Assembly (NCBI RefSeq): GCF_004010195.1
Contig: NC_057718.1
Coordinates: 92,887,404 to 92,951,403, forward strand
Direction of reading: 5' to 3'
Origin: Chiloscyllium plagiosum
Taxonomy: Eukaryota
Length of the DNA stretch: 64,000 bases
Under the pieces are notes generated by a model. The model had not been told where the DNA came from and did not search any database. It worked only from the letters and a program-made list of their open reading frames with translations. Both the position numbers and the translations under genes were made by a program. Shown here piece after piece: positions 16,461-56,926 of this stretch; the first letter of the stretch is position 1, and every line of letters starts with the position of its first letter.

Positions 16461-16551
16461 CTGATAGAAGGGCTTTTGGCAGAAACATCGACTCTCCTGA
16501 TCCTCAGATGCTGCCCGACCTGCTGTGCTTCTCCAGCACCAAACTCTTGAC
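16461..16551 (+). mobile_element. Family B PLE-type fragment starting at a decayed hammerhead
   Basis: CTGATAGAAGGGCTTTTGGCAGAAACATCGA...GATGCTGCCCGACCTGCTGTGC. Confidence 0.75.
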
Positions 16552-16867
16552 CGATGTCTTGGTTCCCTTTGTCAGCCCAAGTGATGCAGTGAAGAGCTCA
16601 GCTAATGGTACAGGCTTCGGGCCTAGAGTCTCCCACAAGTCAGGATCACTGGCTGGCCACCTGGAAACGAGGCAGTTCTGAAAATGGAAACAAGAGGATT
16701 AGTGAGAGGTCTCAGTTGGACTGGGAATCCTGGGAGGTCACAGAGAATGGATTCTGAGGGCAGGAGGCAGGTTAGAAAGGATCCATTGTGTCAGCCTGCA
16801 GGCTTTTCATGGATCACAACAGCTGGGTATGTATCACTTACATGTTGTGGCAACATCCCAATGGCAT

Positions 16868-17060
16868 ACATAGAGTCATAGATTCATCCAGCACAGATAC
16901 AGACCCTTCGGTCCAACCCGTCATGCTGACCAACTTTCCCAAACTGAACTAGTCCCACTTGCCTGCATTTGGCCCATATTCCTCTAAACCTTTCCTATTC
17001 ATGTACCTGCCCAATGCCTTTTAAATGCTGTTCCTGTTTCTGCATGTATCACTTCCTCAG
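16868..17060 (-). mobile_element. CR1-type LINE 3' end
   Basis: CATAGAGTCATAG...ACAGACCCTTCGGTCC. Confidence 0.85.
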
Positions 17061-17096
17061 GCAAGTGGTAGGTGGGGTTGTGGTCTGTGATTATTA

Positions 17097-17306
17097 CTGG
17101 GTTGGAAATGTGTTGCTGGAAAAGCGCAGCAGGTCAGGCAGCATCCAGGGAACAGGAGAATCGATGTTTCGGGCATAAGCCCTTCTTCAGGCTTATGCCC
17201 GAAACGTCGATTCTCCTGTTCCCTGGATGCTGCCTGACCTGCTGCGCTTTTCCAGCAACACATTTCCAGCTCTGATCTCCAGCATCTGCAGACCTCACTT
17301 TCTTCA
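17097..17306. mobile_element. Fold-back PLE-type insertion, family B
   Basis: Near-identical inverted arms of about 80 bp; TSD TCTGTGATTATTA at 17084-17096 and 17307-17319; minus-strand CTGAAGA AGGGCTTATGCCC GAAA CATC at the pivot. Confidence 0.9.
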
Positions 17307-17394
17307 TCTGTGATTATTAATCCATTTGAAAAGACTCCCTTAAATAAAGGTTAAGAAGCACTGCACTAAGGATGGGAATGGCATCCAGATACAA

Positions 17395-17882
17395 AAACAC
17401 TGGAGAGGGTGCAGAGGAAGTTTACCAGGATGTTGCTGAGGCTGAAGAATTCTAGTTGTGGAGAGAGTTTGGGCAGAGTGGGGTTGATTTCCTTAATGCA
17501 GAGGAGATTGAGAAGGGACATAATTGAGATGTGTACAATTCTGAGGAGCGTAGGTAGGGTAGACAGGAAGGAACCTTTCCCTTTGAAGGAGGGATCAATG
17601 ACAAGGGAGCATAGATTTAAGGTAACGGGCAGGAAGTTTAGGGGAGATGTGAGGACAAACTTTTTCACTCAGAGGGTGGTGGGAATCTGGAGCTCACTAC
17701 CTATCATTGTGGTAAAGCCAGAAACACTTATAGCATGTAAGAAGCATTTAAATGTTGCACTTGCAATGCCAAGGCATACACGGCTATGGGCCACGGTCGA
17801 TTAGAATAGTAAGGTGGTTATTTTTGATGATGCAGACTCCATGGTCAAAAGGGCCCTTTTTCAGTGCTGTCGATCTCCATGA
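17395..17882 (+). mobile_element. CR1-type LINE 3' fragment, distinct subfamily
   Basis: ORF 17409-17804 QRKFTRMLLRLK...RRLRRDIIEMCTIL...FFTQRVVGIWSSLP. Confidence 0.88.
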
Positions 17883-18409
17883 CGTGTGTTTGGAAGAGTC
17901 CACAGACATGGTCCACCATTACCATCTGCTGGACAGAGGTAGTACTGCAACAACAAGAAACCTTCCCTTCAACCCACTTCCATTCTCTTCAAAGAAAACG
18001 ATTGTTACATTTTCAAGGGAGATGTCAGAACATTTTAATTGAGTGAAAGAATTGACTGAAAAGCTTCTCATGGGGAACAAAATTGAATGACAAAGACTGG
18101 ATTCAAAATACAGCAGTATTTATTGATCAAAGTTGATTCTTACCTCTGTCTATTATCATGAGACTTTAAAGCAAAAGGATGGAATAAAACCACTCAGTTT
18201 AATGAAGACCTGGAGGCATATTACATTTCAAAAGGGAAAATGGACTTTGTAAAATGGTGAGTATTGCCTGACAGATAAATAACAGAAGGGTGAGCTTATT
18301 GCTTCCCCTTCCTCCACCAATAGCCCTAAACCCACTCATGAGACAGACCTGTATAACTCAATCTTTCCCGAGTTACTCAAAGGGTCTTCTACCCTCTTAC
18401 AATGAAAGT

Positions 18410-21400
18410 TGAGATCTCATGTGCCAGCAGAAATACTGTCACCAAGTCACCCTTTACTTACATGTGGAGAGTCCTTAACATTGCTCCAGCTCTCACAGAG
18501 CCAGATCTCAGGGTGACCAGGATGCCTGTTCGTATCTGTCAGCCAGGGCTCCCTGATTTGGCCAGTTCTCATTCAGGGAACTCATATTCTATGAGGTCCA
18601 CGAGGCTGACTTCATTACAATCACTAGATCCCGTCCCCTCTGAGTCCTAGGGCACCACTGGTTCTTTTTTTGTTGTTGTGGCTCCTCCAGGGGTGCTCAT
18701 CCAACTCAGCCTCTGATACGGGATGGCGTGTAACACACAGTAGCTCACTTCTTGTGCCTGGAACATCTCGGAAGAAATGCATTCTCTTCTTCATGCAGCA
18801 AAGATGAGGCAACAACATCCGCCGTGTTCACCTCATATTCTGAGGTATCATCAAAACTTGATGGAGAGGGAGAACCCACAGGTCCCGGAACAATCTGAAA
18901 GGCTGTGGAAGATCTGGGTACGTGTTTCTCCTGCACCGTTTGTGCATTTGCAGCTTTCATGTGGTCTATGTGTTTGTTCAGGACCATTGCACCAACTCAA
19001 ACTTTACATGTCACTAGACCTGACCTTGCGTCAACCACACCTCTTACCGATGCAGGGCCATTCCCGTGGTCCCTACACTAAACTTCATCCCCTGAAGTAA
19101 ACTGTCTCTCTCACTTATTGGAGTCTTCCATCTGGCATTGCCATTTCTGATGCCATTTTATCCTCCCCTCTAGTTCCAACAAGATCATATTTAACCTGGT
19201 GCAGAGTCTTCTCCCCATTAACAACTCTACTGGAGCTATCCCTGTAGTTGCGTGAGGGTAGTCCTATAATGAAATATGAACTGGGACACCTTTGTATCTA
19301 GTGAAGCTGTCGGCTGTTTCTTTAATCCTACATTCAAAGTTCGGACTGCTGTTTCCACCAGACCATTGGATGATGGGTAGTATAGTGCTGTCCTTATATG
19401 CTGAATACCGTTCATCTTTAGAAAGTACTCAAATTCCGTGTTTTTAAAAGATGGCCCATTATCTGTGACCAACACTTCCAGGAGTACTTGTGTTACAAAA
19501 GATGTGTGGTGTTTCTACAGCTGTCCCTGTGTTTGATGAATGAACTCTATGCATGCCCAGCCCCCATCACCACTGGCTATTTCAGTTTTGCCAGGAATGG
19601 ATCTTTCTTTGTCCAAAGTCTGATATTGTCGGCTGTGACTGGAAATGTGTCCAGAAAATTTAAAACTGTTTAGAACTCTTGCAGTGGTGGTAGTACTGGT
19701 GGTGTACCTGCCAGTGGGTGACGGCTCAATGCATCAGCATTTGCTACTTGGCCTCCTAGATGGTGATCCAACTTGTGCACTTAGTGCTAGACCCCATCGG
19801 TGGATTTGGCCTGAAGCTATGGGAGACACTCCCTTGTCCTCTTCAAGTAAACCCAGCAGAGGTTTGGGGTCCATTATTATTACAAATTTAAGTCTATAAA
19901 TGTATTGGTAGAACTTCCTGACTCCAAATCTGATTACCAAACCTTCCTTCGCAATCTGGGCGTATTTTGCTCTGCATTACCCAAGTCTTGAACGTTTACG
20001 CTTTTGGGCGTTCTTCACCATGAGGTAACCTATGAGCAAATACTATCCCGATGCCGTACGGGGAGGTATTGCATGTCAATACTAGATCTTGCTTGGGATC
20101 ATTTGTGCCAGCACTTTAGAGAATGATAGCTGTTCCTTCACCTCCCTGAAAGCTATGACTTGGCTACATGACAATTTCCAATGTTGGGCCATTTGTAAGG
20201 TGCTGGGATGAAGTCCAGGTTATTATGAATTTTCTATAATAATTCAGCAGCCTAAGGAAACACCTAAGCACCGGTACAGACATGGGAGTTGGGGCATCTT
20301 TGCCCTGACTTTATTCACCAATGATCTTGTTGACTCTGTAGCCCAAGAAGGTCATTTGGGGTGCCCAGAACACACATTTTTACCTTCTAAGGCACATGCT
20401 GGCCTGGGAGAAATATCTAATCATTCCGTCCAAGATCTCTAAGTGGCCCTATTGATCTTCCCTGTTGTTAGCGTGTCATCCAAATAAGTGGCGACACAGG
20501 CTAGACTTTGTAAAATGGTTTCCATGATCTGCTGAAAAATGGCACAGGCTGATAATACCCCAAATGGCAGTCTCTCACATATTGGCATGAACCCTTATAG
20601 GTATTAATTCTAGTATACTTCTGAAAATACCTCCTCTAACTGCAGTTGTAGGTACATGCATGGTCATGTCCAGCTTTGTGAAGGACAGCCCCCATGCCAG
20701 CTTTGTGCACCAGTCCTCCAGGCGAGACATTGGGTATCCAGCTGTAAGAAGTGGTTTACCATTTGATTAACATTCGCACATAGGCAAACCGACCCTCAGA
20801 CTTCATAATAGGGGCAGCATGGTGGCTCAGTGGTTAGCACAGCTGCCTCACAGCGCCGGGAACTCAGGTTTGATTCCAGCCTCAGGCGACTGTCTGCGTG
20901 GAGTTTGCACATTCTTCCCAGGTCTGCATGGGTTTCGTCCAGGTGCTCTGGTTTCCTCCTATAATCCAAAGATGTGCAAGTTAAGTGAACTGGCCATGCT
21001 AAATTGCCCATAGTGTTCAGGAATGTGTAGGTTTGGTGCATTAGTCAAGGGTAAAATGTACAGTAATAAGGGAGGGAAATGGGTTTGGGTGGGATACTCT
21101 TCGGAGGGTCGGTGTGGACTTGTTGGGCTGAAGGGCTTGATTCCACACCGTAGGGATTCTATGATAACAGGAACACCTGGAGCTGCCCATCCCACAAACT
21201 GGGCTAGTTTGACGATTTCTTCTCTCTCCAGCCTCTGGATTTCTGCCTCTACTTTTGCCCCGAAGGAAAATGGCATTGGGTGGCCCTTGAAGAATCTGGG
21301 AAGAGCTTCTTGGTCAACCTGAAAGCTGGCCTTGTCTCCTTTGACAGTCCCTAGAACGTCCTGAAAATCTTGTGGGTATTTAATTAGGACTTCACTCAGG

Positions 21401-22904
21401 CAGCCTATTTCTAATTGAAAAATGTTGAACTAATCAAGGTGAATCTCTCGCAACCAATTTCACCCCCATCAGGCTTGGGCCTGAGCCTTTCACTACAGTC
21501 AGTGGCAACTAAATCAGTTGCTTCTCAGAAGAGACTGGGACCGAAGTTGTACCCTTAATCTGTAAAGGTTTCCCAGTATAGGTTCTCAGTCTAGCTGAGG
21601 TTTTCCGCAAATGTAAGGGTTGGAGTAATGAGCAAATTTTGTTAAAGACTGTTTCTACGATCAAAGAAACAGCCACACGGGTGTGACCTCCATTCGAACT
21701 GGGGGACCATTTAATGAGAGGTTTATTTTGATTGGTGGTGAATTGGATGTTGCTGAGCAACTTAACTGATCCAAGGTGTAGGTGGACTTTTCGGGGTGAA
21801 CATTCTCCTGGATACTAGCCTATAAGTTCTCTTACTCAATTTAGGTCTTTTGTTGTCTCGAGTCTGCATACCAGCAGGAACTCTAATTGCTCGCTGGCCC
21901 AGATCCTGAAGAAAATTTTAACAGTTTGGCCGAAGTCTGGCTTTGTTTTGGGGTTTTGCTGCGGGCTGACCTAGAATCCCTCTGTTCAGGATATGTCCAG
22001 AGCAAGGCTTGCAAATGCCTTCACTCAAGTGGTGTTCCCCAAGGTCAGTTGGACTGGTGAGGGTGTTCACTTCCACTGGAATACCCTGTAACCCATAAGA
22101 TCCACTTGCTGCATTTTTCAATGATGGCCAGTTGTTGTATCTGTTTGAAGTCTAGTTGGGCTTCAGCTAGTAGGCACGTTTGCATAGTTCCATCATTAAT
22201 TCGACATACCTAATAATCTCTCAGCATCTCATTAAGGGTTAAATAAAACACACATGTCTCTGCCAGTCATCTTAAGTAAGTCAAAAATCCCGATATGGAC
22301 TCCCCTCATTTGCGAATTGCTGAGTAAAGTCAAAGTATCTCAGAATGAGAGGAGGCTTGGAGTCATTATATTCCTAAACTAAATTTGTCATCCCTTGAAA
22401 AGTTTTGGTATCTGGAGCCTCATGGAAAGTTAGGCTCCTAATAACCAAAACAGCTGCAGGACCACAGGCTGTCAGGAGAATTACTCGTTGCTCTTCATCT
22501 GTCCCAATATCATATGCCTGGAAAACACAACACATTCTTTCCCCATACTGATCCCAGTCTTCGACAACAGGACTGAATGAGTCAAGCTTCCCAAATGACA
22601 GCATGATGCCAGAGATGCTTACTCCAACTCAAAGACAATTATCGCGAGCGAGTTTCTTCAGGACTGTGTTTTTCTCTAATTGGCACTGAAATAACTCCAT
22701 GATGGCCGATATCCAGTCACGAAGTCACCCTTTACTTAGACTTAGAGAGTTCTTGACACTGATCCAGCTCCCTCAGAGCCAGCTGTCAGGATGTCTGACA
22801 TCCCTGTTTATAATCTGTCAGCCAGGTTCCCTGATTAGACCAGATTAACAGCCCCAGTAAAGGAACTCATATTCTATGAGGTTGACCTGGCTCAATCACA
22901 AACA
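18410..22904 (-). mobile_element. Decayed Ty3/Gypsy LTR retrotransposon
   Basis: Direct LTRs at about 18410-18628 and 22687-22904; Gag-like FGKLDSF...EDWDQYGERM (22374-22604); protease-region LRTYTGKPLQIKG; RT VATYLDD near 20480; RNase H-region DPKPLLGLL; integrase VTDNGPSF...YYPSSNGLVE (19236-19475); purine tract AGAGGGGACGGGA before the 3' LTR; many stops and frameshifts. Confidence 0.92.
20811..21163 (+). mobile_element. HE1-type SINE nested in Gypsy pol
   Basis: Full head-to-tail copy; flanks ATAATAGG/ATAACAGG may be a TSD. Confidence 0.92.
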
Positions 22905-23204
22905 TTGTAGGCTGCAATCACAGCATTATAGGCTGCTGTGCTATTTGGAGAATTTAACATTAATAATTGCTGTGCTTTAATACGGTGATAGTGGGACTGG
23001 GACCAAATCCAGTTTTGAATTTTCTGAAACCATCGCAGTGATATATCTCATTTGCAGCAATGGATTATGGACACAGCTTCAAAGATATAAACATGAAAAC
23101 ACATAAGATTGTTTACTTATAGAGCACCAATTAAACAATATATAAATGGAAATCAGACCTCCTCTTCGCATTACAAGACTGTTGTAGAGATTAAGTAAAA
23201 CATT

Positions 23205-23787
23205 TACCCCCTCCACACCAACACTCAGTAGCAGCAGTGTGTACTATCTACAAGCTGCACTGCAGAAAAACACCAAGACTCCTTCACTAGCACCTTTCAA
23301 GCCCATGACTGTTACCATTTGGAAGGACAATGGCAGTAGATACATGGTAGCGCCACCACTTCCAAATACTCACCATCCTCATGTTGAAATACATTGCCAT
23401 TCCTTCAATGTCACTTAGAACTCCCTCTCTAAATGTTTTGTGTCTACCTTAAAAGGACTGCCACAGTTTAAGAAGGTAGTTCACTATCACCATCTCAAGG
23501 GCAACTAGGAATGGGAAATAAGTGCTGGCCGAGCAAGTAATGTCCATATCCCATGACCCTAGCCATCACCCTGTTGACATTGAATGGCATTACAGTGGCT
23601 GAATCTCACAATTAATCTCCTGGGGGTTACCATTGATCAGGAACTGAAATGGACTAGTCACAAAATACTGTGGCTATTAGAGCAGGTCAGAGGCTAGAAT
23701 CATTGCAGCAAAAGCCTGACCACCATCTACAAGCCACTAAGCAGGAGAGTGTTGGAATATTCTCAACTTCCTAGATGAGTGCAGTGT
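23205..23787 (+). mobile_element. LINE family 2 (CR1/L2 group) fragments
   Basis: Homologous to the minus-strand copy at 42.4-43.4 kb; 3' end GGGCAACTAGGAATGGGAAATAAGTGCTGGCC near 23500; an upstream piece follows out of order at 23560-23787. Confidence 0.75.
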
Positions 23788-23788
23788 T

Positions 23789-24412
23789 TAGATCAGAGTG
23801 TTGCTGGAAAAGCCCAGCAGGTCAGGCAGCATCCAAGGAGCCAGAAAATCGATGTTTCAGGCAAACGCCCTTCATCAGGAATAGAGACAGGAAGCCTCCA
23901 GGGTGGAGAGATAAATGGGGGGGGGGCGCTGAGGGGGAGGTAGCTGGAAGGTTGGAACTGGGGTAAGATGGGGGAAGGGGAAATGAGGAAACTGGTGAAG
24001 TCCACATTGGTGCCCTGGGGTTAAAGTGTTCTGAGGGGGAAGATGAGGTGTTCTTCCACCAGGCATCGGTGGTGAGGGAGCGATGGTTGAGGAGGCCCAG
24101 GACCTGCATGTCCTCAGCAGAGTGGGAGGGGGAGTTGAAATGTTGGGCCACAGGGCGGTGTGGTTGATTGGTGCGGGTGTCGCGGAGATGTTCCCTAAAG
24201 TGCTCTGCTAGGAGGCGTCCAGTCTCCCCAATGTAGAGGAGACCGCATCGGGAGCAACAGATACAATAAATAACATTGGTGGATTGCAGGTGAAACTTTG
24301 ATGGATGTGGAAGCTCCTTTGGGGCCCTGGATGGAGGTGAGGGAGGAGGTGTGGGCGCAGGTTTTGCACTTCCTGCGGTGGCAGGGGAGGGTGTCAGGAA
24401 GGGAGGGTAGGT
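23789..24412 (-). mobile_element. PLE family B 3' fragment with GIY-YIG endonuclease (Neptune-like)
   Basis: Cys-rich linker CHRRKCKTCAH, then VIYCICCSRCGLLYIGETGRLLAEHFREH; downstream hammerhead ATTC CTGATGA AGGGCGTTTGCCT GAAA CATC (23848-23882, minus strand). Confidence 0.9.
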
Positions 24413-24502: not shown

Positions 24503-24855
24503 TTACTGTAGTCCTGCCAGAGCTCAGGGTTGCTCTCTCACCACAGAGAAGCAACTGATGGTGGCTTAAGCTGAGGCTGACCACACCCTCTGGTGAGGGG
24601 AGAGACTGGGAAGGAGAGTCCTTCCTGGCAATCTCAGCAGATGGGGTAGGTGAACCCACACTGTTGAAGGGCTTTTGCCTGAAACGTTGATTTTCCTGTT
24701 CCTCGGATTCTGCCTGACCTGCTGTGCTTTTCCAGCACCACTCTAATCTAGAATCTGGTTTCCAGCATCTGCAGTCCTTGTTTTTACCTAGTTGATTTTA
24801 ACCCACACTGTTGACATTACTTTGTATTACAAACCAGCCACCCTGCCACCTTAGA
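24503..24855 (-). mobile_element. tRNA-derived SINE-like element (third family), interrupted
   Basis: Minus head GGCTGGTTTGTAATAC...CAACAGTGTGGGTTCA is B-box-like; sequence is continuous across the 24668-24799 insertion. Confidence 0.5.
24668..24799 (+). mobile_element. Short single-arm family B PLE insertion
   Basis: TSD AACCCACACTGTTGA at 24653-24667 and 24800-24814; the insert begins at hammerhead stem II. Confidence 0.88.
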
Positions 24856-25955: not shown

Positions 25956-27420
25956 TATTGATTTATTACTGACCTGTAAAACCATGGGCTATTGAGTGTA
26001 ATGCCTTCCGAGGTAAAGTTATCAAAATCCCTGTTACAAATAACATTGTGGAGCACCAAAATAGAAACAAGATTGCAATTGAACAGGTTTGTGATGGGAA
26101 GTCATTCAAATTTAATGACCCGGGAGTATTTAAGAAAGGAGCAAGACATCAGATGTGCTGTCCTTGGGCAGGGAAAAATGATGAGAGTGGGGATCAGTGG
26201 AAATATTTTTGCATTGGCTATATATTTGTCTGGCCAACAGAATCTAAAGGGATACCTCTCAATGGCTGCAAACTAGACGAGTGGAATCTGATGGGTGGTC
26301 ACAAACTGTTAGTTGCTATATTTGCATTTTATATAAAATGAATGGAGGTAGACTATAGAAGCAGGAGTCAAAATTTAATGATTTGGGAAATGAGTCAATG
26401 CACTGCATTTCTATACATTAAAATTTCATTTGCTTCACAGATCGACAATATCCAGCAAGGGACCATTGCTTAAATAGTAAGAAGATCATGTGCGTTGTAA
26501 AAGAGGGATGACAATAAATTGAAGCTGTCACAACTATATTCAAGAGGCAGTGACTATCAATGAACTTATTGGGACTTATTACTAGGCCAATATAGAGCCA
26601 ACTTAGTCAGGTAATCCTGCCACTTTACAAATCATGAGTTCATCTACCCTCAGAATACTGTGTGCAGTTATGGTCACTCTCTGCAAAACTGGATATCATA
26701 ACAAATGGAGGGAGGAACATTGTTTGAGGGGATGGAGAGATTTGATCAAATAGGCACATTCTCACTGGAACAGAAGCAGTTGAGAAATATTACAACAGTT
26801 CAGTATTTTAGACTATGTAGAAATTGTGCCTACAGAGGACTCGATTGGCTCAATTGGTAGTGTACTCTCTCTGAGTCAGATGAATGGGGTTCCTGTTTAG
26901 GAGAGGTAGTGGTGCAAGTAATTCTAACTGCAAGGCAATGGACACATGGGTTTTAGTCCTGCCATGGCAGATGGTGAAATTTTAATTCCTGGAATTAAAA
27001 GATGGATTAATGACGATTTGTCATCCAAGCCATTGATACCTATTTTAAATAATTGCGATCCCAGCACTGATCTATGTAGTTAAACATCACTATCTTGAAA
27101 ATGTTCCCCATATTCAAACTCTCAGTTTTCTATTGGTCAGCCATTCCTTCATCTGTGCTAATATACTACCCCCAACACAATCGGCTTTTATTTTATTAAG
27201 TAAACTTACATGCCATACTTTTATCGAACACCTTTTGGAAATCCAAATTACATCCACTTTTTCCACTTTATCTGTCTGACTTGTTAGCTCCTTTAGAGAA
27301 TTGTATTAAATTTGTCAGGAATGATTTCCCCTTCATGAAGCCAGGCTGACTGTGCCTGATCATATTGTGTGTTTCTAAATGCTCTTCTGTTAAATTCTTT
27401 ACAATAAACTGGAGAACTTT

Positions 27421-31901: not shown

Positions 31902-32065
31902 ATGATTTGGAGGTACCGGTGTTGGACTGAGGTGGACAAAGTTAAAAATCACACAACACCAGGTTATAGTCCAACAGGTTTATTTGATGAAGGAGCAGTG
32001 CTCCAAAAGCTAATGCCTCCAAATAAACCTGTTGGATTATGACCTGGTGATGTGGGATTTAAAAC
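31902..32065. mobile_element. Short fold-back PLE-type insertion, family A
   Basis: CCAGGTTATAGTCCAACAGGTTTATTTG is inverted against CAAATAAACCTGTTGGATTATGACCTGG; the plus arm starts at TGATGAAGGAGCAGTGCTCC. Confidence 0.8.
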
Positions 32066-32249: not shown

Positions 32250-33442
32250 TGTTGTGGTCCTGTTCGCCGAACTGGGAATTTGTGTTGCAGACATCTTGTC
32301 CCCTGTCTAGGTGACATCCTCAGTGCTTGGGAGCCTCCTGTGAAGTGCTTCTGTGATGTTTCCTCCGGCATTTATAGTGGTTTGTCTCTGCCGCTTCCGG
32401 TTGTCAGTTTCGGCTGTCCGTTGCAGTGGTCGGTATATTGGGTCCAGGTCGATGTGCTTATTGATTGAATCTGTGGATGAGTGCCATGCCTCTAGGAATT
32501 CCCTGGCTGTTCTCTGTTTGGCTTGTCCTATAATAGTAGTGTTGTCCCAGTCAAACCCATGTTGCTTGTCATCTGCATGTGTGGCTACTAAGGATAGCTG
32601 GTCGTGTCGTTTTGTGGCTAGTTGGTGTTCATGGATGCGGATCGTTAGCTGTCTTCCTGTTTGTCCAATGTAGTGTTTTGTGCAGTCCTTGCATGGGATT
32701 TTGTACACTACATTGGTTTTGCTCATGCTGGGTATCGGGTCCTTCGTTCTGGTGAGTTGTTGTCTGAAAGTGGCTGTTGGTTTGTGTGCCGTTATGAGTC
32801 CCAGTGGTCGCAGTAGTCTGGCCGTTAGTTCGGAAATGCTCTTGATGTATGGTAGTGTGGCTAGTCCTTTGGGTTGCGGCATGTCCTCGTTCTGTTGTCT
32901 TTCCCTTAGGCATCTATTGATGAAATTGCGCGGGTATCCGTTTTTGTACAAAATCCCATGCAAGGACTGCACAAAACACTACATAGGACAAACAGGAAGA
33001 CAGCTAACGATCCGCATCCATGAACACCAACTAGCCACAAAACGACACGACCAGCTATCCTTAGCAGCCACACACGCAGATGACAAGCAACATGAGTTCG
33101 ACTGGGACAACACTACTATTATAGGACAAACCAAACAGAGAACAGCCAGGGAATTCCTAGAGGCATGGCACTCATCCACAGATTCAATCAATAAGCACAT
33201 CGACCTGGACCCAATATACCGACCATTGCAGCGGACAGCTGGAACTGACAACCGGAAGCGGCAGAGACAAACCACTATAAATGCCGGAGGTAACATCACA
33301 GAAGCGCTTCACAGGAGGCTCCCAAGCACTGAGGATGTCACCTAGACAGGGGATGAAACATCTGTAAAACAAATTCCCAGCTTGGCGAACAGAACTACAA
33401 CAACGAGCACCCAAGCTACAAATCTTCTCACAAACCTTGAAC
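32250..33442. mobile_element. Penelope/Poseidon-type PLE (family D), head-to-head 3' halves encoding GIY-YIG endonuclease
   Basis: Minus arm reads open as NGYPRNFINRCL...ATLPYIKSISE...VVYKIPCKDCTKHYIGQTGRQLTIRIHEH...REFLEAWH; plus arm repeats it from YKIPC; TSD TCTTATTGGCTGA at 32237-32249 and 33443-33455. Confidence 0.95.
33326..33365 (+). ncRNA. Minimal hammerhead ribozyme motif, family D
   Basis: GCA CTGAGGA TGTCACCTAGACAGGGGAT GAAA CA TC TGT; the mirror copy at 32287-32326 (-) has different substitutions. Confidence 0.75.
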
Positions 33443-33852
33443 TCTTATTGGCTGAATCTTACAAGAAATTGGCTAAATGTCATTTTTGGAAAGTTTTCAT
33501 GGAGGGTTTCTCTTTGTGAGGCCTAGTGAAGTTATCACACTCTCATCTCCAACTTAATTTATTAACCATGCACCATTTCCCTCTGCGTCCCCACCCACCC
33601 ATCACTGTCCTATCCTCCCATCGCTGTAGGCTGTCATATGCACCACTGCTGGCACTGGGCTGGATTCCTGGCGTTGAAGTCATATTTAAAACACAGTTGT
33701 GCATCATGCGACAGTCTGGAGAGCTGTGCACAGATCCAGTAAATTATCCTGGAGATGGGCAAATAAGGTGAAGTATACCTGTTGATAAACAAGGCTAATT
33801 GTGAAAATGTGGTTGAAGTACTCACAATGCACATTGAAGAAGGGCAGAAACA

Positions 33853-36547: not shown

Positions 36548-36557
36548 ATGTTGAAGG

Positions 36558-41169: not shown

Positions 41170-41905
41170 TCAGGGATAGGTCACAGCTTCAGAGTTCCTC
41201 CGAATGTATGGGCTCCACAGGATGACCACAGCCTTTTTGGCTCTCACCCCATTTACTGGGATTGCAAGTTGCAGGTTCTGGGCTTCTCAGCACTCTGTGA
41301 CAGAACTCTGCCGAATGCTAAGGCTGAGAAGTGGGAGGTCATCCTTTTCTGTTGGCTGTGAAGGTGACAGCTGTTTTATGTGATGCTGTCCTTCCAGGGA
41401 GCGATAGGAGACCTGTGTGCGATCTCTCAGTCGTGTGCCCAACAAACCCACCAGGACAGTGACCCACGCCCTCGGAGCAAGATCATGCCAGTTGATTTCA
41501 GTTCCTGGTCACGTGGTCAGTGCTGTGGCCCAGGCAGTAAGATTTGGGAATGTAGCTGGCTTCTCCCTGATACAGGGTGCCATCAGCTGTACACAGGTGA
41601 CATTGACAGGGCTGTATCACAATGCTGCGGAATTCGACATCAGGAGTGGATTCCAATCCATTCATGGACAGGTGATCTGTGAGCACCATTACATCTTCCC
41701 TGCAGTGTGTGCCCACTCCCCTGGCAGCCTCCAACACTCCTACATGTTGGATCACTCTCAGATAATTGGTGCATTTCAGAGTTAAGGCTGGTTAGTGGAG
41801 GACAAAGGCTACCCATTATGATCTTGGCTGATGACCCTATTGGACGGTCCCCTAACTGATATGGAGCATAGATACAGATACAATGCTGCCCAGGTGTCGT
41901 TGGAG
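41170..41905 (+). mobile_element. Decayed PIF/Harbinger (HARBI1-like) DDE transposase
   Basis: Frameshifted pieces AVKVTA, SFQGAIGDLCAISQSCA, AGFSLIQGAISCTQV, RSGFQSIHGQVICEH, PGSLQHSYML and GWLVEDKGYPL*SWLMT...EHRYRYNAA follow Harbinger motif order (GAIDCTH, PGSxHD, GDxGYP). Confidence 0.85.
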
Positions 41906-44325: not shown

Positions 44326-44357
44326 AGAAACATATGTGCCTGAGATGACAAGCAGAA

Positions 44358-46715: not shown

Positions 46716-47076
46716 CTATTATAGTTGGCCTGAGTTGCAAACTTTCACCTCTGACTGTAAGATTCTACATCTGATGAATATACAACTTTCTACGGTAAAC
46801 ACATGGCTTGAGGTTCTGCAGGATATTTTAACTCAGAAGAGATGAGGTATAGACTTTGTTTGGAAGCCCACATGTCCCAGTTCCTCCCTGACAGTTTCAA
46901 ACTACTCACCCCCTCGAAAGTCAAGGTGAGGGGGGAATCACCAACTAGAATTAATATTCCACAATGTATACCCCATTCCACAATGATGTATACCATTGCA
47001 CCAATTGTAATGATATACAATTATACCATTGCAGCAGTCCTCTGACATGCAAAAGGCTTGCCAGCATATTATCAGG

Positions 47077-47173
47077 AACAAAAATAGACATTGTTAGAAA
47101 AACTCAGCAGGCCTAGCAGCATCTGTGGAGAGAAAGCAGAGTGAACATTTCCAGTCCAATGACCCTTGTTCAG
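47077..47173 (-). mobile_element. Family C PLE-type fragment beginning at a decayed hammerhead
   Basis: Minus strand CTGAACAAGGGTCATTGGACTGGAAATGTTCAC...CAGATGCTGCTAGGCCTGCTGAG. Confidence 0.65.
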
Positions 47174-47339
47174 GTGCTGTTATCAAAGCTTAGGCGCTCT
47201 TTTTCTTAAATTCTTTACCATGCTTTGATGGGGAAATAATTTTAGGGCACCAGGAAGACTTGTCAGTTCAAGATTATTGTATATTGTAAACAATCTGCTG
47301 ATTTGAAATTAAGATTGGTAATGACATTATGCCAGAAGT

Positions 47340-47929: not shown

Positions 47930-49375
47930 TTGGAGAGCTCTGTTTCTGAAGAGGGGTGGAGACCACTTCTTACAAGTCTGTATGACATGAACCAGGCCCA
48001 CAGTGCCATCCTGGTTTCAATGGCTGTGGAAAAGCCTGTGGCCTGTGGAGGATGATGTGGAAATGAAAGCCTTATTTTATTGTCTCTGAACTTGCTTCAT
48101 TATTATATCCTACTTCCTTTGGCCTCACCATCCACTCCCACTTCTGTCATATTAATAGTAATGGTCTAATATTCAACCATTTTGTGTCATGATCCACTGG
48201 GTCTAGTATATTGTCAGTTCAGTTGTATTACAACTACGCCACCACCTCCCCTCAAGTATATTGTGATAGCCCAAGTGTTTGTCATTTATCATGCAATGTT
48301 TCTGGAGCTGCTCCAATATTTGAAAGCAGCTTAAAACAACTTTATATATTTATTTTAAGGTTTTGCCTATGAGATTTCTGGGTTGCAGTGATTAACTGAA
48401 GTTACTGTTTGCACACGCCCCTAATTTAATTCTGTGAAAAGCTGGATTCCAATATGTTGGTTCACTTCTGATGCTGATTGATCAAACATAAAAGATGTAA
48501 CCCTTTCATGACGTTAAGGAATCCTAATACATAAAATGATGTGCATTCTTTGTTGTATTACAGGAGTCCTAGAGTAACCCAACTAATTGCACATAGTAAG
48601 CTCCACATACAGAAGTCTGACTTTTTTTTCAACATGTTCTTTGAGAGGTACATGTTTGATTGTATTCCCCTGTGTGGGTTCTTTGCACATTGACACACAC
48701 TCAGGCCAGACTTCTTCGGAAATGATTATCCACATTTATTGCTACACTGGTGCATGAAGGCTTTGAGTTTTTCTGGATCCAACTTCATCTTGAAATAGTG
48801 CATGTTCTTTCATAGTTCAGGTGGAAGCATGTTGCTGGTGCAGAACAGAGGGGTATTTTTACAGCGTTTGACAGTGCTGGGCTTAAATTCAAACTGATAC
48901 TGTGTGTAAACAGAACCTCTAGTCACTGTCTGCAGACACCAGCTTCCACCTTACACAGAAAGCTTGGTAAATATTTTACTTGTTTATCTTATCTTTTAAA
49001 ACTCAGGCAATTTATTACGAATTGCAAAGTTTAAATTGTATTAGCGAAGCTTGTGGGCATTAATAAATCTTCTTGGGTGCACTGGGATTTATTAATTATA
49101 AATGAATTACTTAACTTCAATTAATTAGAATGCAATAAAGATGACAAGGTAGGTGAAATATTGCAATTGCAGGATGTGGGTGCTGCTGGATGCCAGTGGA
49201 ATCTGAATGGAAAGTGTTGAGTGTTTGCAGCATAAGAAGCTGTGGCTATGAATTGAATACTGAATTGCAGACGCTTAAAGTCACATCAAGGATGGGAAAA
49301 GTTACTTGCATACTTTATCCCTGGAGGTGATCGTGGCTCTGAGAATAGGTTCTGCTGATTTATTCAGTGGGAGAA

Positions 49376-49480
49376 ATTCCTGATGAAAGGCTCATGCCTG
49401 ATTCGTCGATTCTTCTGCTCCTTGGATGCTGCCTGACATGCTGTGCTTTTCCAGCACCAGACATTTCGACTCTGATCTCG
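49376..49480 (+). mobile_element. Short family B PLE-type insertion starting at the hammerhead
   Basis: ATTC CTGATGA AAGGCTCATGCCT GATT CGTC GATTC...GACTCTGATCTC; the GAAA box is mutated. Confidence 0.8.
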
Positions 49481-50057
49481 TCAGTGGTCAGGGGCAGGAA
49501 GGTATGACTGAGGTGAGGCAATCAAGATAGATGTGAACTGAAATGCAACTCTCTCATCCAGTTTATTATACAAAAAAACCATCAGCGACCCTAATGACAA
49601 AGGATATGATGAACTTTACTGAATCATAGCTGCACTGAGAGTAGACTTCCAATATTTGTTAAGTGTAATAACAATTAAAAACCCACTCTTTAGAAATTGA
49701 TTTATACCTTGGAATTTATTGCACGGCCTTGCCCATTATATGTGCTGGAAGTTTTCCATTCATTTTCTGTGACATTAACTTACAGTGGCGTTGAAGAGGA
49801 TCAACCACAATCTTTTCACTCAGAGGTCATTTATAAACAGTTACATCTGCTTGTATTGTTTACGGTGCCATTTGAACTGGTCTAATTTTGGTCATTTGGC
49901 AGCTTATTGCATATATGTACCACCCTCTGCATGAAGAAGTTACCCTTTGGGTGCACTTGAAAAATTTCCCCTCTCACCTAATTGTGGTCCAGTTGTCTGC
50001 CACATGCGAATCCAACGTATCCCATATGCATTACATTATTTCACACAACAGATGAGA

Positions 50058-51388
50058 ACATTATAGAATCATAGAATCATAGTCATACAGCACGGAAACA
50101 GATCCTTCGGTCCAACTCATCCATGCTGGTCAGACATCCCATTCTCACAAAGTCCCATTTGCCAGCATTTGGTCCATCTCCCTCTGAACTGTTCCTATTC
50201 AGGTGCCCACCCAGGTGCCTTTTAAATGTCGCAAATGTACCAGCCACCAAAATGTCCTTTGGCACCTCGTTCCATACATGCACAACCCTTTGCATGAAGA
50301 AGTTACTCCCCGGGTCCACTTGAAACTTTTCCCCTCTCATCTTAAACCTATGCCCTCTTATTTCGGACTCCCCCACATGAGGAAAAAGAAGTTGGCTATT
50401 CACCCTATCCATACCCCTCATGATTTCATAAACCTTTATAAGGTAATCTTTCAGCTTCTGACATTCCCTTCAGCTCCAGGGAAAAAGGCCCCAATCTAAG
50501 CAGCCTCTTTCTTTAACTCAAGCCCTCCCGTCCCAGAAACATCCATGTGAATCTTTTCTGCACCCTCTCATGTTTTACAACTTCCTTCCTATAGATGGGC
50601 GACTACAATTATACACAGTATTCCAAAAGTGGCCTCACCAATGTCCAGTACAACCACATCATGATATCTCAGCTCATATACTCAGTGCTATGACCACTGA
50701 AGGCAAGAGTGCCAAACACCTTCTTCACTACCCTATGTGGCTCCACTTTCAAGGAGCTATGCACTTGCACCCCTAGGTCTCTTTGTCGGCAACACTCCCC
50801 AGGACCCTATCATTAACTGCTTAAGTCCTGTCCTGGTTTGTCTTACCAAAATGCAATGCCTCATATTTATCAAAATAAACTCCAATTACCACTCCTTGGC
50901 GCATTGGCCGATCTGATTAAGGTCCCATTGTACTCTGAGATAAACTTATTCACTGTCCTCTGCGCCACGTATTTTGGTGTCATCTGCAAACTTACTAACC
51001 ATGCCTCTTTAATTCATATCCAAATCATTTATATAAATGACAAAAAGCATTGCACCCTACACTCATCCTTGTGGCACACCGCTGGTCACAGGCCTCCAGT
51101 CTGAGAAGCAACTCTCCACCACCACTCTCTGTCTCCTACCTTCAAGCCAATTGTGTATTCAATTGGCTAGCTTCCCTTGGGTCCCATGTGATCTAATCGT
51201 ACTAACCAGTCTACCATGCAGAACCTTGGTGAATGCTTTGCTGAACTCAATATAGACAATGTTTACTACTCTGCTTTCATCAATCTTCTTTGTCACTTCT
51301 TCAAAAAACTCAATCATGTTAGTGTGGCATGATTTCCCATGCATGAAGCCATGCTGACAATCCCTGATCAGTCCTTTCCTTTCTAAAA
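50058..51388 (-). mobile_element. CR1-type LINE 3' 1.3 kb with RT
   Basis: QHGFMHGKSCHTNMIEFFEEVTKKIDE...VYIEFSKAFTKVLHGRL; (ATCATAGA)n tail. Confidence 0.93.
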
Positions 51389-51840
51389 ACAAATTTGGAA
51401 CAAGGAGTCCAATTCAACCCAGCAAAGCCTGTGGAAGTCTTACTCTCCTTTATCTAGTTCATCTGCTGGGGAATCAATCTACATAGGTAAGCACAGAACC
51501 CAGCCTGGTATAATTAAATATGATACAGAGGAGGGTCTTGGGAATGCTTGGGATCAAGTCCCACCAGCCACAGAGGTGTGTCACAACTTGTTCAAACCAG
51601 TCGATTAACAATAATTTACTCACCACTAGTTAGAAAAACCCAAACACAATAAATTTCCAGATCAGTATTGTAGAAATTTGCAAGTCGAAACTTTGTATTT
51701 ATTCTAGTTATGCTGCTGATTTGTCCAAGTTCCAAACACCATTCAATGTCTATCATACAAAGCAAACTCACAAAAAAACATATTTTAGCTCAACATCTCT
51801 GGACTTGCTCCCCATGAATGTCGGCTTGAATGTTCATCAG

Positions 51841-51931
51841 TCAAGAGTGTGGTGTTGGAAAAGCAGAGCAGGTCAGGCAACATCCGAGGAGCAAGAGAAT
51901 CGATGTTTCGGGCAAAAGCCCTTCATCAGGA
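51841..51931 (-). mobile_element. Short family B PLE-type insertion with hammerhead at its 5' edge
   Basis: Minus strand TTC CTGATGA AGGGCTTTTGCCC GAAA CATC GA; probable TSD GAATGTTCATCAG/GAAGGTTCACCAG. Confidence 0.82.
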
Positions 51932-52504
51932 AGGTTCACCAGGCCAGGGAAAGTCTCCACCCATTCCCACAAGGACCACTATGACTGAAGGAAAAGGGTT
52001 TTGATGGGGCCATTTGCATTCTTTGAGATTAATGCCTTCATCAATCTTTGACTGACATATGGGCTCTTAATCTCTCTGCCACCATTGGACAAAGACAAGG
52101 ATCAAAGATGTAATCGATTACCGGCTTTAATGAGTGTTAAACAGCACTCATTTTTATGACTTCATTGAACCCATCAATTTTTCCCATCTTCTTAATTCCA
52201 AGGTATAAGTTTTTTTGCATGTATGAGTACCTAGCAAGAAATAATTAGGGCAAAAGGGTCCAAAGCAAACCCCCAGAGAAATGAGTTGCATAATTGGAAT
52301 TAAAAGACTGTAAAATGGGAACATCAAAATGGTTTGTGGGGGAAGGGTTAGAGCACTGAGCCGATCAAACCCCTTCTGTTATTCAATGAAATCTAAGAGG
52401 TAACAGCCCTGTGAGATATAATCAGTTTTACTGGGTGACAAAGGCCAAAAAATATTAACACTTTGAACCTCAGTAGGATGCAGTCTTAGGGGTTACAAAG
52501 GGAT

Positions 52505-53719
52505 CAGGATTAGAGTGGTGCTGGAAAAGCACAGCAGGTCAGGCAGCATCTGAATAGCAACAGGTCATGAGGATGGTGCTGAGCTGGAAGGTTGGAACTG
52601 GGGTAAGGAGGGGTGAGGGGAAATGAGAAAACTGGTGAAGTCCATATTGATGCCCTGGGGTTGAACGGTCCCGAGGCGGAAGACGAGATATTCTTCTTCC
52701 ACGTGTCGGGTGGTGAGGGAGTGTTGGTGGAGGAGGCCAAGGACCCGTATGTCCTCAGCAGAGTGGGAGGGGGAGTTGAAATGTTCGGCCACGGGGCGGT
52801 GGGGTTGATTGGTGCGGGTGTCCCGGAGCTGTTGTCTGAAGTGCTCTGTGAGAAGGCGTCTGGTCTCCCCACTGTAGAGGAGACTGCATTGGGAGCAATG
52901 GATACAATAAATGACATGTGTGGAAATGCAGGTGAAACTTTGATGGATGTGGAAAGCTCCTTTGGGACCTTGGACGGAGGTGGAGGGGGAGGTGTGGGCT
53001 CAGTTTTGCAATTCCTGCGGTGCCAGGAGGGGAGGGTGAGTTGTTGGGGGGGTGTGGACCTGACTAGGTGTTCATGGAGGGAACAGTCTCTGGAAAGTGG
53101 ATGGGGTGGTGAGGGAGATATATCCCTGGTGGTGGGGTCCATTTGGAGGTGGCAGAAATGTTGGCGGATGATCATACCAATCAACCCCACTGCTCCATGG
53201 CCAAACATTTCAACTCCCCATCCCACTCTGCCGAGGACATGCAGGTCCTGGGCCTCCTCCACCGCCAATCCCTCACCACACGATGCCTGGAGGAAGAACG
53301 CCTCATCTTCCACCTTGGGACCCTTCAATCCCATGGCATTAATGTGGCCTTCACCAGTTTCCTCATTTCCCCTTACCCCACCTTACCCCAGTTCCAACCT
53401 TCCAGCTCAGTACCATCCTCATGACCTGTCACAACTGTCAATCTTTGTTCCCACCTTTCCATTCCACCCTCATCTCCGACCTATCACCTTCACCCCCACC
53501 TCCATCCACCTATTGCACTCTCAGCTACCTTCTCCCCAGCCCCACCTTCTCCCATTTATCTCTCCATCCCCAAGGCTCCCAGCCTCATTCGTGATGAAGG
53601 GCTTTTGCCTGAAACGTCGATTTTCCTGCTCCTCAGATGCTGCCTGACCTGCTGTGCTTTTCCAGCATCACTCTAATTTTGACTCTAATCTCCAGCATCT
53701 GCAGTCCTCACTTTCGCCT
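52505..53719. mobile_element. Fold-back PLE, family B, with GIY-YIG remnant
   Basis: Minus arm to about 53172 and plus arm from about 53173 both encode HFNSPSHSAED...EEExLxFxLGT; TSD GG(T/C)TACAAAGGGAT at 52491-52504 and 53720-53733; hammerhead at about 53587-53621 with the first C mutated. Confidence 0.92.
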
Positions 53720-54265
53720 GGCTACAAAGGGATGTCACTTCATTGTGTCTTTCATCATTACACCTGTCTGAATCTTGAAAGTGTAGTTTCCAGCATTTAT
53801 CTGTGTCAAGCAGCCAGAAAATCTACCCGCTATCAATAGGGTGCTCAGGTCACTTGTGAAATTCAATGAAAAAAAATTACTGGTTGGTTGCCCCTCCTTT
53901 AATATCCTTTCCATTCTCTCTGGAAAGAATGTCTGATTCTATGCCTGATCACATGTAACAACCCATCATTGGCTATCCCCCAATAGGGCCCATTTGTCCT
54001 CGTTTGTGGTCAGAATTCTATTTCTTAATCACTGGAAGCATATCTAGTCTGTGCTGAATCCACAAGAGCTCTGATATAGAGAGAACTTCCATCTTCTTAG
54101 ATAGTTGCGCTATATATATTGAAGTGTTGCTATTAGTTAAAAACAGGTTGAACTATCTCTATGAAGTGGCTCACAGAACCAGTAGTTCACTAAAAAGTCA
54201 AAACACAGAGTTTGACTGCATTACTGTTAACTCAGAACTATCAACCCATGAAGATCTTTCGAATT

Positions 54266-54589
54266 CGGGTGGTATGGTAGCACAGTGGTTAGCATTGCTA
54301 TTTCACAACCTCAGGGGCCTGGGTTTGATTCCAGCCTCGGGCAACTGTGTGGAGTTTGCACATTCTCCCATGTCTGTATGGGTATCCTCCCACAGTCCAA
54401 AGACACGCAGGTTAGGTGGATTGGCTGTGCAAAATTGCCCATAATGTCTAGTGGTGTGTAGGTTAAGGGATTAGCCATGGCAAATGTAGGGTTAAAAATT
54501 AGGGTGGGTGTGGGTGGGGCACTCTTTGGGGAGTTGGTGTGGACTCAATGGATTAACTAGCCTGCTTCTACACTGTATTGATTCTATGA
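54266..54589 (+). mobile_element. HE1-type SINE
   Basis: GGTAGCACAGTGGTTAGC...GGTTTGATTCC...ACACTGTATTGATTCTATGA. Confidence 0.88.
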
Positions 54590-54843
54590 GTCTGAATATA
54601 TGACTCAAATTATGCAAAGCTTTCTGAAGATCTGTGAATGTTTTGAGTGATATTGGCTTTGGCAAAAAGGTGAAACTGCACAACCTAATTTTGCCAACAA
54701 ACACTCCTCTGAGTGAGCCAACAGGGGATGAATCTAGGGTTCAACATTGCTTGAAAAAAATGGACTGCAGTCACAAGGATCCTTCACAAATGACATTGCA
54801 AAAGGCAGCTTAGCATTGCACGGTATTCATCTGAACCAGGCTG

Positions 54844-54933
54844 CTGAAGAAGGGCTTATGCCCGAAACGTCGATTCTCCTGTTCCCTGGATGCTGCCTGA
54901 CCTGCTGCGCTGTTCCAGCAACACATTTTCAGC
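54844..54933 (+). mobile_element. Short family B insertion starting exactly at an intact hammerhead core
   Basis: CTGAAGA A GGGC TTAT GCCC GAAA CG TC GATT...; the 5' strand of stem I is missing. Confidence 0.85.
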
Positions 54934-55157
54934 GCCTGCCTTATGCAGCCAGACAGAGAGTCCCTGATATTGTTGTGCTTCCCACGATGTACGATCAAGT
55001 TTGGAGGAGCCTATGAGGTTTTTCCAAGGCATTTTCAGTACAAGTTTGAAGTAGGTTTCTTTGTATTTCTTCCAGTGCATACATACACTTGCGCATGTGT
55101 AAAATGCAACTGCATGAAGCCTTACTTATAAGTTCATGAGTTCATGAGATATAGGAG

Positions 55158-55373
55158 GAGAAAGTGAGGTCTGCAGATGCTGGAGATCAGAGATGGAAAT
55201 GTGTTGCTGGAAAAGCGCAGCAGGTCAGGCAGCATCTAGGGAACAGGAGAATCGACGTTTCAGGCATTAGCCCTTCTTCAGGAATGAAGAAGGGCTAATG
55301 CCCGAAACGTCGATTCTCCTGTTCCCTAGATGCTGCCTGACCTGCTGCGCTTTTCCAGCAACACATTTCCATC
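55158..55373. mobile_element. Fold-back PLE-type insertion, family B
   Basis: Near-identical arms; perfect TSD TCATGAGATATAGGAG at 55142-55157 and 55374-55389; hammerheads back to back at the pivot. Confidence 0.92.
55251..55285 (-). ncRNA. Minimal hammerhead ribozyme motif, family B
   Basis: Minus strand ATTC CTGAAGA AGGGCTAATGCCT GAAA CG TC GAT; palindromic ACGT stem III, GUC triplet; stem I is weak. Confidence 0.7.
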
Positions 55374-56705
55374 TCATGAGATATAGGAGCAGAATTAGAC
55401 CGTTCGGCCCATCAAGTCTGCTCTGCCATTCGATCATGGCCGATATGCTCCTCACCCCCATTTTCTTGCCTTCTCCCCTTTACCCTTCAACCCATTACCA
55501 ATCTGTCGAACTCCTCCTTAAATTTACTCACTGTCCCAGCATCCTCCGCACTTTGAGGTAGCCAACTCCACAGATTCACAACCCTTTGGGAGAAGTAGTT
55601 TCTCCTCCACTCTGTTTTAAATTTGTTACCCCTTACCCTAAGACTATGATCTATCATCCCAGAATGCCCCACAAGGGGATGATTCCACTCCACGTCTATT
55701 TTATTCACACATTTTAACGTGTTGAATACCTCAATTTAACCTCCCCTCATTCTTCCAAATTCCAGAGACTCTCAGCTTAAAGTGTTCAATCTCTCTTCCT
55801 ACGACAAACCCTTTATCTCTGGGATCAAACTAATGAACCTCCTCTGAATGGCCTCCAATGCCACTCCATCTTTCCCTAAAAAGGGGACCAAAACTGTGCA
55901 CAATACTCCAGGTGTGGTCTCACCAATACCTTGTATAGTTACAACAATGCATCTTTGCATTTATATTCCATTCACTTTTATCTTCTGTACCTGCACACTA
56001 GTTTTCTGGGACTTATGAATGAATACACCTCGATCCCTCTGCTCCAGAGCACCCCAAAGTCTCTCCCCATTATGATAATTAGGTTGCCTTCCCACATTTT
56101 TCGACCCAAATGCATGACCTTGCACTTATCCACATTAAACTCCATCTACCACATTTTGGCCCACTCTCCCAACCTATCTACATCCCACTTGCAAGGTTCT
56201 TATTTCCTGAATGCAATTTACCATCCTGCCTATATTTGTGTCAACTGCAAATTTGGCTACAGAGCCTTCTCTCCCTGTATCCAAGTAGTTAATATAGATT
56301 GTAAATCGCTGGGGCCCAAGGACTGGACCCTGTGGCACCCCACTAGTTACTTCTGCCATTCAGAAAAAAACTCATTTATTCCGACTCTCTGTTTTCTGTT
56401 CATCAGCCAGTCACCTATCCAAACTAATAAATTACCCCTAATTCCATATAATCCAACCTTGTGAATTAACCTTTTGTGAGGCACCTTAACAAACACCTTC
56501 TGGAAGTTCAGACAAATTACATCTACAGCATTCCCATTATCCTTTTTGCTTCTTACTTCTTTGAAGAACTCTAGCAAATTAGTCAAACATGATTTGCCCT
56601 TCATCAAATCATCCTGACTCTGATGGATAGCATTTTGACTTTCCAAATATCCTGATACTGCTTCCTTGATAATTGATTCTAACACTTTCCCAACAACAGA
56701 TGTTA

Positions 56706-56926
56706 GAGTCGAAAAGTGTGGTTCTGGAAAAGCATAGCAGATCAGGCAGCATTGAGGAGCAGGAGAGTGACTGATTCAGGCATAGGTCCTTCAGCAGGCT
56801 GATGAATGGCTTATTGCACAAAATATCAACTCTCCTGCTCCTGGGAGGCTGCCTGACCTGCTGTGCTTTTCCAGCGCCACCCTTTTCAACTCTGACTTTC
56901 CAGCATCTGCAGCCCTCACTTTCTCA
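56706..56926. mobile_element. Older fold-back PLE-type insertion, family B
   Basis: TSD CAACAACAGATG(T/C)TA at 56691-56705 and 56927-56941; pivot CCTTCAGCAGG|CTGATGAATGGC. Confidence 0.88.

Follow-up and report, generated by a model that had tools for sequence, protein, structure and literature searches.

Among described retroelements, the Penelope-like elements (PLEs) of the Neptune clade come closest to the repeats considered here. According to the accessible text of Craig et al. (2021, PMC8557442), they combine a C-terminal GIY-YIG endonuclease holding two cysteines, a CX2-5CxxC linker and a pseudo-long terminal repeat (pLTR) with a hammerhead ribozyme, and they exhibit an optional tail of 30-40 nt at one end, frequent 5' truncation and an inverted 5' copy. 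The same traits are found in repeats of a 64,000-nt stretch of Chiloscyllium plagiosum DNA (NCBI RefSeq assembly GCF_004010195.1, contig NC_057718.1, positions 92,887,404 to 92,951,403 of the forward strand), hereafter the window. These repeats are short copies of a known element class, and both the class and its architecture were already known. What differs is a sharp truncation peak at a defined base, accompanied by an excess of G, which the accessible parts of that paper do not describe. In our reading, to which we give a probability of about 0.7, the 5' ends of the short copies pile up before the hammerhead core as reverse transcription from the leader of the element runs off the capped start of the RNA. 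The more general part of this reading, run-off at an RNA end, is considered very probable. The finding is real, and it constitutes a mechanistic refinement of a known class.

A second relative is Poseidon_Ac of Anolis, an element of the Poseidon clade (Frangieh et al., 2024, PMC11167929). In the part of that study available to us, the likeness lies in two internal start sites of the reverse transcriptase (RT) that bound the tail at the pLTR-body junction, in the extension of both target strands and in the use of uncleaved RNA; Poseidon_Ac moreover needs RNA downstream of its two internal priming sites. Its open reading frame (ORF) however starts at helix II of the ribozyme, against about +170 in our family A (numbering below), a multi-copy mRNA from tandem loci is proposed, and the transcription start and the genomic 5' ends are unmapped in that part of the study. 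The minimal hammerheads of metazoan PLEs (Cervera and de la Pena, 2014, PMC4209133), as far as the accessible text describes them, share with ours the CUGANGA box, one extra base, helix II, the GAAA box, a palindromic 15.2-16.2 segment and a short helix I, and most of those motifs are solo, some being on opposite strands. Cleavage and circularisation were proposed there, whereas the short copies reported here start elsewhere than at the cleavage site. Non-LTR retrozymes (Li et al., bioRxiv 10.64898/2026.07.22.740005) are likewise short hammerhead units derived from PLE pLTRs, with many monomers; in the available text they are defined by tandem units, whereas the units described here occur singly or head-to-head and do not make up a separate lineage. 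A search of the literature, outside of which fall two older reviews that may bear on the matter (Evgen'ev & Arkhipova, 2005; Arkhipova, 2006), returned no report of this end peak or of a cap signature in PLEs.

Penelope-like elements of the window

Positions are numbered from the C of CUGANGA, taken as 0. Families A, B and C are assigned to Neptune-type, endonuclease-bearing (EN+) PLEs from the motif definitions found in the accessible text of Craig et al. (PMC8557442), and family D, in which the linker is missing, is of the Penelope/Poseidon type. The GIY-YIG endonuclease, with two cysteines inside the motif, is read at the C-terminal end in family A, in two copies of family B and in one copy of family C; the CX2-5CxxC linker ahead of it is intact in A and B and decayed in the single C copy. 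Two of four ORF pieces gave Pfam GIY-YIG matches, those for family A being under the curated cut-off (E 7e-4 and 6e-3), and four other PLE ORF pieces gave no Pfam match of any kind. Candidate RT motifs (DKG and a core YIDD) lie upstream in broken family A copies and were not seen in B or C; Pfam gave no RT match. The family A ORF also carries a long low-complexity stretch rich in Thr, Pro and Ala, about 600-900 nt upstream of the RT start and before the RT domain (loci L093 and L099).

In family A the pLTR stands in direct orientation ahead of the ORF start, the tail is optional, and 76 inverted pairs were collected in a sample of the 3.56-Gb assembly comprising one 100-kb block from each of 16 other contigs (1,552,795 bases, N excluded). 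The 3' ends of this family fall at about +88 and +125. In A copies that hold the ORF start, the tail continues directly into a short 5' untranslated region (UTR), followed by an ATG at about +170; because the tail runs on into the 5' UTR and the ORF start, the short copies are copies of the leader of the element.

All four families present a minimal type I hammerhead core, following the model in the accessible text of PMC4209133. The predicted ribozyme comprises the core boxes, helix II, a palindromic helix III stub and a short helix I, with a predicted cleavage site at +27/+28 in A and +28/+29 in B. A hammerhead descriptor gave 234 matches (174 palindromic), in a set that includes loci selected by motif, against 1 in shuffled sequence, and an Rfam scan gave no match at gathering score. 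The leader of family A folds no better than shuffles (z -0.25 and +0.27); that of B has a z of -2.6.

A peak of 5' ends at the ribozyme core

The 5' ends of sample copies were mapped against long natural copies, and life tables were built for A and B (rates per nt at risk). For family A, 278 of 542 anchors were kept (score of 70 or more, no better match to family C, 3' end at or past +60, de-duplicated), of which 41 touch assembly gaps and were censored. These 41 copies run into gaps in the C-rich 3' UTR, so that long copies are under-assembled. For family B, 77 of 100 anchors were kept; for family D, 181 raw matches were mostly flanking short interspersed element (SINE) sequence and 45 sample copies were retained.

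As the initial annotation of the window had anticipated, breakpoints plotted over this 1.55-Mb sample are not smoothly distributed but form a peak at the ribozyme core in both A and B. Among copies reaching +2, 90 of 186 end within -8..+2 in family A, and 24 of 52 in family B. The corresponding rate is 0.057 per nt at risk in A, 16 times a background of 0.0035 (p about 1e-56), and 0.054 in B, 9 times a background of 0.006 (p about 1e-12). The peak is present in solo copies (12x in A, 7.5x in B) as well as in inverted arms (15x and 8x). It has a sharp upstream edge, with 0.002-0.004 per nt at -20..-49 in A and zero ends at -20..-39 in B, and a tail on its downstream side, the rate at +3..+10 being raised to 0.018 per nt. 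The commonest family A end is -4 (18/237). In family D, the interval -8..+2 holds 4 ends (p 0.06), and 6 ends form a weak cluster, defined post hoc, at -13..-4.

An alignment artefact caused by the C-rich UTR was considered and set aside. In a cut-and-remap simulation, 21 of 157 truly longer A copies were shifted into -8..+2, where 22 true ends became 41 called ends in A and 30 became 41 in B; the simulated inflation is thus at most about 2x, far below 16x, and the exact-word counts given below are independent of the aligner.

In the window itself, short copies had been annotated as starting or flipping within about 10 nt of CUGANGA at ten sites, in families A, B and C. Nine of the ten hold after mapping by alignment to long natural copies, and the tenth (47173, family C) is plausible. 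These copies, together with longer and contrasting ones, are the following (pairs are given without a strand).

7628..7913: family B pair, joined at -42/-42 (7753) through a perfect palindrome centred on the TATA box
16461..16541, plus strand: short solo copy of family A with its 5' end at 0
17103..17306: head-to-head pair of family A, minus arm +87 to -1, plus arm +9 to +126, junction 17190/17191, target duplication of about 13 bp
23782..24393, minus strand: family A long copy with Cys linker, GIY-YIG end, C-rich 3' UTR, TTTATC at -37, initiator-like site and hammerhead core at 23878
24661..24796, plus strand: short solo copy of family A, 5' end 0 to +7, tail and target duplication present
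31902..32060: family B head-to-head pair, tail-bearing arm at +36, short arm (31985) at +1
32250..33443: family D inverted pair joined inside the ORF, away from the ribozyme (contrast case)
47075..47174, minus strand: family C short copy, apparent start about 0 at the core (47173), judged without mapping to a long copy of its subfamily
49376..49479, plus strand: family A short solo copy, 5' end at -4
51846..51932, minus strand: short solo copy of family A with its 5' end at -3
52508..53722: long inverted pair of family A that includes GIY-YIG fragments; the plus arm has a core at 53591 and a tail
54844..54932, plus strand: short solo copy of family A with its 5' end at 0
55157..55371: head-to-head pair of family A; the tail arm reaches about -4 and the short arm (55285) starts at +1
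56700..56933: family A head-to-head pair, junction 56798/56799 at -1/0
59084..59492: family B longer inverted pair; minus arm with TATAAA at -38 and core at 59162

The first 7 nt of the solo copy at 24661-24668 lie inside the target duplication, and 24668 is a fair call for its start. The partner arm in the 55285 pair is placed at -12 by the aligner since the arms overlap; it reaches -4. Counter-examples to the clustering are pair 10901 (+40/+44), the B copy at 16220 (+25), the B pair at 7753 and several long copies, and the word CTGANGA is not enriched in the window (53 matches versus 45 +/- 7 by shuffle).

That the ends are not those of cleavage products had also been claimed, and this stands: the window ends lie 27-32 nt upstream of the predicted cut, and the family A rate at +25..+31 (0.003 per nt) is that of the background. 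A cleavage-end model is rejected on this lack of a peak in family A; the family B rate over the same interval is 0.010, from 5 ends.

Core-promoter-like words and extra G at the ends

The usual spacing of RNA polymerase II (Pol II) promoters places a TATA box about 30 nt before an initiator A, and the word TCATTC, found around the A at -4 in family A, is initiator-like by consensus. Of 28 long references of family A, 23 have a TTTATC-like box at -33..-37. TATAAA is present in all 9 references of family B, at -38..-40 in 8 of them. In family C, 14 TATA-like hexamers fall at -35..-30 against 5 in the other 186 positions (55 copies), and TCAGTT often ends at -1. The TATA or TATA-like box thereby sits 29-33 nt upstream of an A at -4 (A and C) or at -8 (B), and these are the starts predicted from the position of the box and the usual spacing. 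Since -4 coincides with the end of helix I in A and C, only family B separates the start site from the structure. A splice acceptor at -4 is ruled out, there being no AG. A TATA box and an initiator-like word were previously noted in a rotifer pLTR, according to the accessible text of PMC3846280.

RTs can copy the cap as an extra G (PMC4038843, available part), and a G excess at one base is the pattern expected from a copied cap. The non-templated base preceding the end was therefore counted genome-wide with exact words, family A counts being those of subfamily A2. For ends at -4 the preceding base is G in 3955 cases, A in 1854 and T in 747, i.e., 60% G versus a background of 25%. The neighbouring positions present no such excess: ends at -3 give 929 G and 5932 C/T (14% versus 21%), and ends at -5 give 722 G and 2523 A/C (22% versus 27%). 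In family B, for which -8 had been predicted from the TATA box before counting, ends at -8 give 1055 G and 761 A/T (58% versus 26%). In the first 30 G loci inspected, the partner arm templates the G in 6 and a long copy carries it as a substitution in 1; a further 11 are inverted with a non-templated G, and 12 are solo. Among the first 100 A matches at -4, 18 form palindromic pairs, and their removal by hand leaves a G:A ratio near 2, versus 0.6 expected.

The location of the peak could also be set by the DNA, if the endonuclease of the element nicked its own DNA or cDNA at the ATT before the core, or if microhomology to AT-rich targets drew the junctions there. Family A does have ATT at -4..-2, AT or ATT is common to element and target at several solo junctions, and Poseidon_Ac prefers 5'-ATT-3' near the ORF-pLTR junction (PMC11167929, accessible text). 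Family B however lacks ATT at this place and has an equally strong peak, and no peak is seen at the other ATT or AT-rich sites of the element, so that such an origin appears very improbable.

Inverted pairs and copies that cross the ribozyme

Of 69 classifiable inverted pairs, 63 have one arm ending at +125 and the other at +88, and it is the +88 arm that more often reaches -10..+2 (27 versus 8 discordant pairs, p 0.002). An inverted junction joining +9 to -1, at the foot of helix II, recurs in 6 loci (window 17103-17306 and five sample loci) among 76 pairs. A single master for this junction is disfavoured, as the six loci have different flanks and five have, by eye, their own target duplications; variants differ between loci and mostly match between arms. 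The 2-nt join is preferred over a version with a longer, 3-nt microhomology (6 versus 0).

The recurring junction, the raised rate at +3..+10 and the peak beside the ribozyme in A, B and, weakly, D would fit the first idea of the initial annotation, namely that, on a longer RNA, the folded ribozyme makes RT stall or switch template. A stall should nevertheless recur on each pass. Ten copies, taken from the best-scoring loci, extend from the ORF start back across the ribozyme; as read by eye, one of them ends at -4, which at a stop rate of 48-40% corresponds to a hand-computed p of about 0.015-0.05; this count disfavours a stall on every pass and favours tandem or circular templates for the long copies. 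A stall on the ribozyme is further at odds with the hard upstream edge of the peak and with the folding of the A leader, and it leaves unexplained a G excess confined to one base, which moreover tracks the TATA box (-4 in A, -8 in B) and not the core. We thus regard this idea as quite unlikely. In 3 of the same ten copies (L126, L131 and L149) the 5' repeat ends at about -22, possibly a second preferred end.

Short and long copies

The second idea of the initial annotation was a discrete non-autonomous RNA of about 100-130 nt, retrozyme- or SINE-like, that would be amplified from its own masters. Short copies do outnumber long ones in subfamily A2 (42 versus 18). In run X15, 15 contigs join the tail end back to -3 (L087:818-943, 943 to 818), suggesting head-to-tail doublets of a 126-nt unit. 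On the contrary, 94 short and 76 long family A copies intermix in all four subfamilies, with 50 label changes on the tree versus 54 when shuffled, and four sets of identical A sequences contain both short and long copies. Diagnostic variants shared by short copies and absent from long ones were looked for in family A over 85 weakly resolved columns; one column reached p<0.01, uncorrected, and none is robust. Neither a short-only clade nor a robust diagnostic site thus sets the short A copies apart. Their 5' ends are varied, and those ending at -4 lack the upstream TATA box. No tandem array of the hammerhead unit is found in the window, and sample copies are solo or inverted, no tandem finder having been run on the sample. 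A lineage of its own is therefore largely refuted, and we give it almost no credence.

The short copies are separate insertions, since target duplications of at least 8 bp are commoner than in shifted controls: a loose finder detected them in 54 of 76 inverted pairs and in 19 of 50 short solo copies, versus 6 of 50 shifted controls for the solo copies.

Proposed mechanism

Under the proposed run-off at a capped start, Pol II would start at the A at -4 or -8, so that the ribozyme comes first on the mRNA and the promoter remains upstream of the start, as in long terminal repeat (LTR) elements. The element protein would prime within the 5' copy, at +88 and +125, in the manner of Poseidon_Ac in vitro. 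The cDNA would gain a C opposite the cap and be joined to the target, often after the loss of a few bases, and it is this loss that would give the end distribution its downstream tail. For head-to-head pairs, each target strand would prime at one of the leader start sites and the two cDNA 3' ends would then be joined, usually over 1-3 shared bases; inversion points would pile up because cDNA ends do. Should priming require sequence downstream of the tail, an element on its own would prime only in its 5' copy and meet the RNA start after 90-130 nt. About half of the passes would end there, while the rest would need a template without that end, or a jump. Long copies would accordingly stem from tandem read-through or ribozyme-made circles, which have no RNA end, or from a jump to the 3' repeat, and the short copies would be dead by-products without a promoter.

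Several observations weigh against this account, and some of them would suit another one, in which the template ends at about -4 through trimming by a 5'-3' exonuclease or cutting at the foot of a protein-bound ribozyme, the G being added by a C-biased terminal transferase activity. The outer end of helix I falls at -4 as well, in A and, as read from the sequence, in C. Family D has TATAAA at -45..-53 yet 0 ends at -14..-25, and so does not follow its own TATA box. RTs are able to add non-templated bases at template ends (PMC8857657, available text). Trimming is however difficult to reconcile with family B, where the G excess, at -8, falls outside helix I (which reaches -3, or -6 if a mismatch is allowed) and lies 30-32 nt from the TATA box, nor would it explain a TATA or TATA-like box kept at about 30 nt in three families; we consider it rather unlikely.

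The remaining points against run-off at a capped start concern the signals themselves. The family A box is non-canonical (TTTATC), those of B and C being canonical. Called ends of family B in the sample are commonest at -3/-2 (10/73), versus 2/73 at the predicted -8, and its G count covers -8 alone. In A, recurring inverted junctions distort the count at -3 as well as that at -4, and 7 of the 12 solo G loci have the G inside the target duplication, hence possibly derived from the target. Family C shows no visible G excess (5 G, 5 A, 4 T, 9 C) in a sample too small and old to decide. Sequencing reads revealed no RNA 5' end: no pile-up of begins or ends was listed and loose ends mixed genomic flanks, the only RNA run being a poly(A) single-cell library of which about 2% was read. 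One set of loose ends at -4, confounded by a variant in the reference, was left out of account. In favour of run-off, -4 is among the top loose-end sites listed in runs X19 and X1, labelled as two organisms. Finally, the promoter of Penelope from D. virilis is internal, with a start 46 nt upstream of an intron of 75 nt whose end is at helix I (PMC2377424, PMC4209133, accessible parts).

In LTR retroelements, minus-strand strong-stop DNA is primed near the 5' end of the RNA and runs off at the cap, the promoter being upstream of the start. The short copies described here would share this logic of priming near the 5' end and running off. They differ from it by the lack of a tRNA primer and of an integrase; priming would be on the target DNA, so that the short product would integrate directly. 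It is tentatively suggested, at somewhat less than even odds, that Neptune PLEs, although not LTR elements, follow an LTR-like plan of replication, with an upstream promoter, an mRNA start at the ribozyme, priming in the leader and a strong-stop-like cDNA. This cDNA would either integrate, giving the abundant copies of 90-130 nt, or have to regain a promoter, by a jump to the 3' repeat or by way of a circle made by the ribozyme.

Neighbouring features

The window contains other mobile element remnants. A fragment of long interspersed nuclear element (LINE) RT lies at 56347-56775 (RVT_1, E 9e-7), with the 56700 inverted pair at its edge, and a weak DDE_Tnp_4 match under the cut-off (41408-41785, E 0.005) may be a DNA transposon fragment. 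The sequences at 2335-2844, 12863-13234, 17370-17804 and 50083-50469 are presumably CR1-like LINE RT fragments, and the ORF piece at 20959-21429, which lacks a Pfam match, is taken to resemble a pol fragment of an LTR element. Two non-repeat ORF pieces (6694-7158 and 25973-26341), also without Pfam match, may be host exons.

Significance for Penelope-like elements

The way in which PLEs make pseudo-LTRs and the role of their hammerheads are described as unresolved in the accessible parts of the two closest studies (PMC11167929, PMC8557442). Provided that the ends are capped starts, the transcription start of these elements is recorded in many thousands of genomic copies, about half of the RT passes end there, and the internal priming seen in vitro is tied to genome structure. 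We caution against the annotation of these short repeats as SINEs or retrozymes. Should the LTR-like plan be true, pseudo-LTRs, tails and head-to-head pairs would follow from one rule, and genomic G counts would map the start sites of PLEs in any genome.

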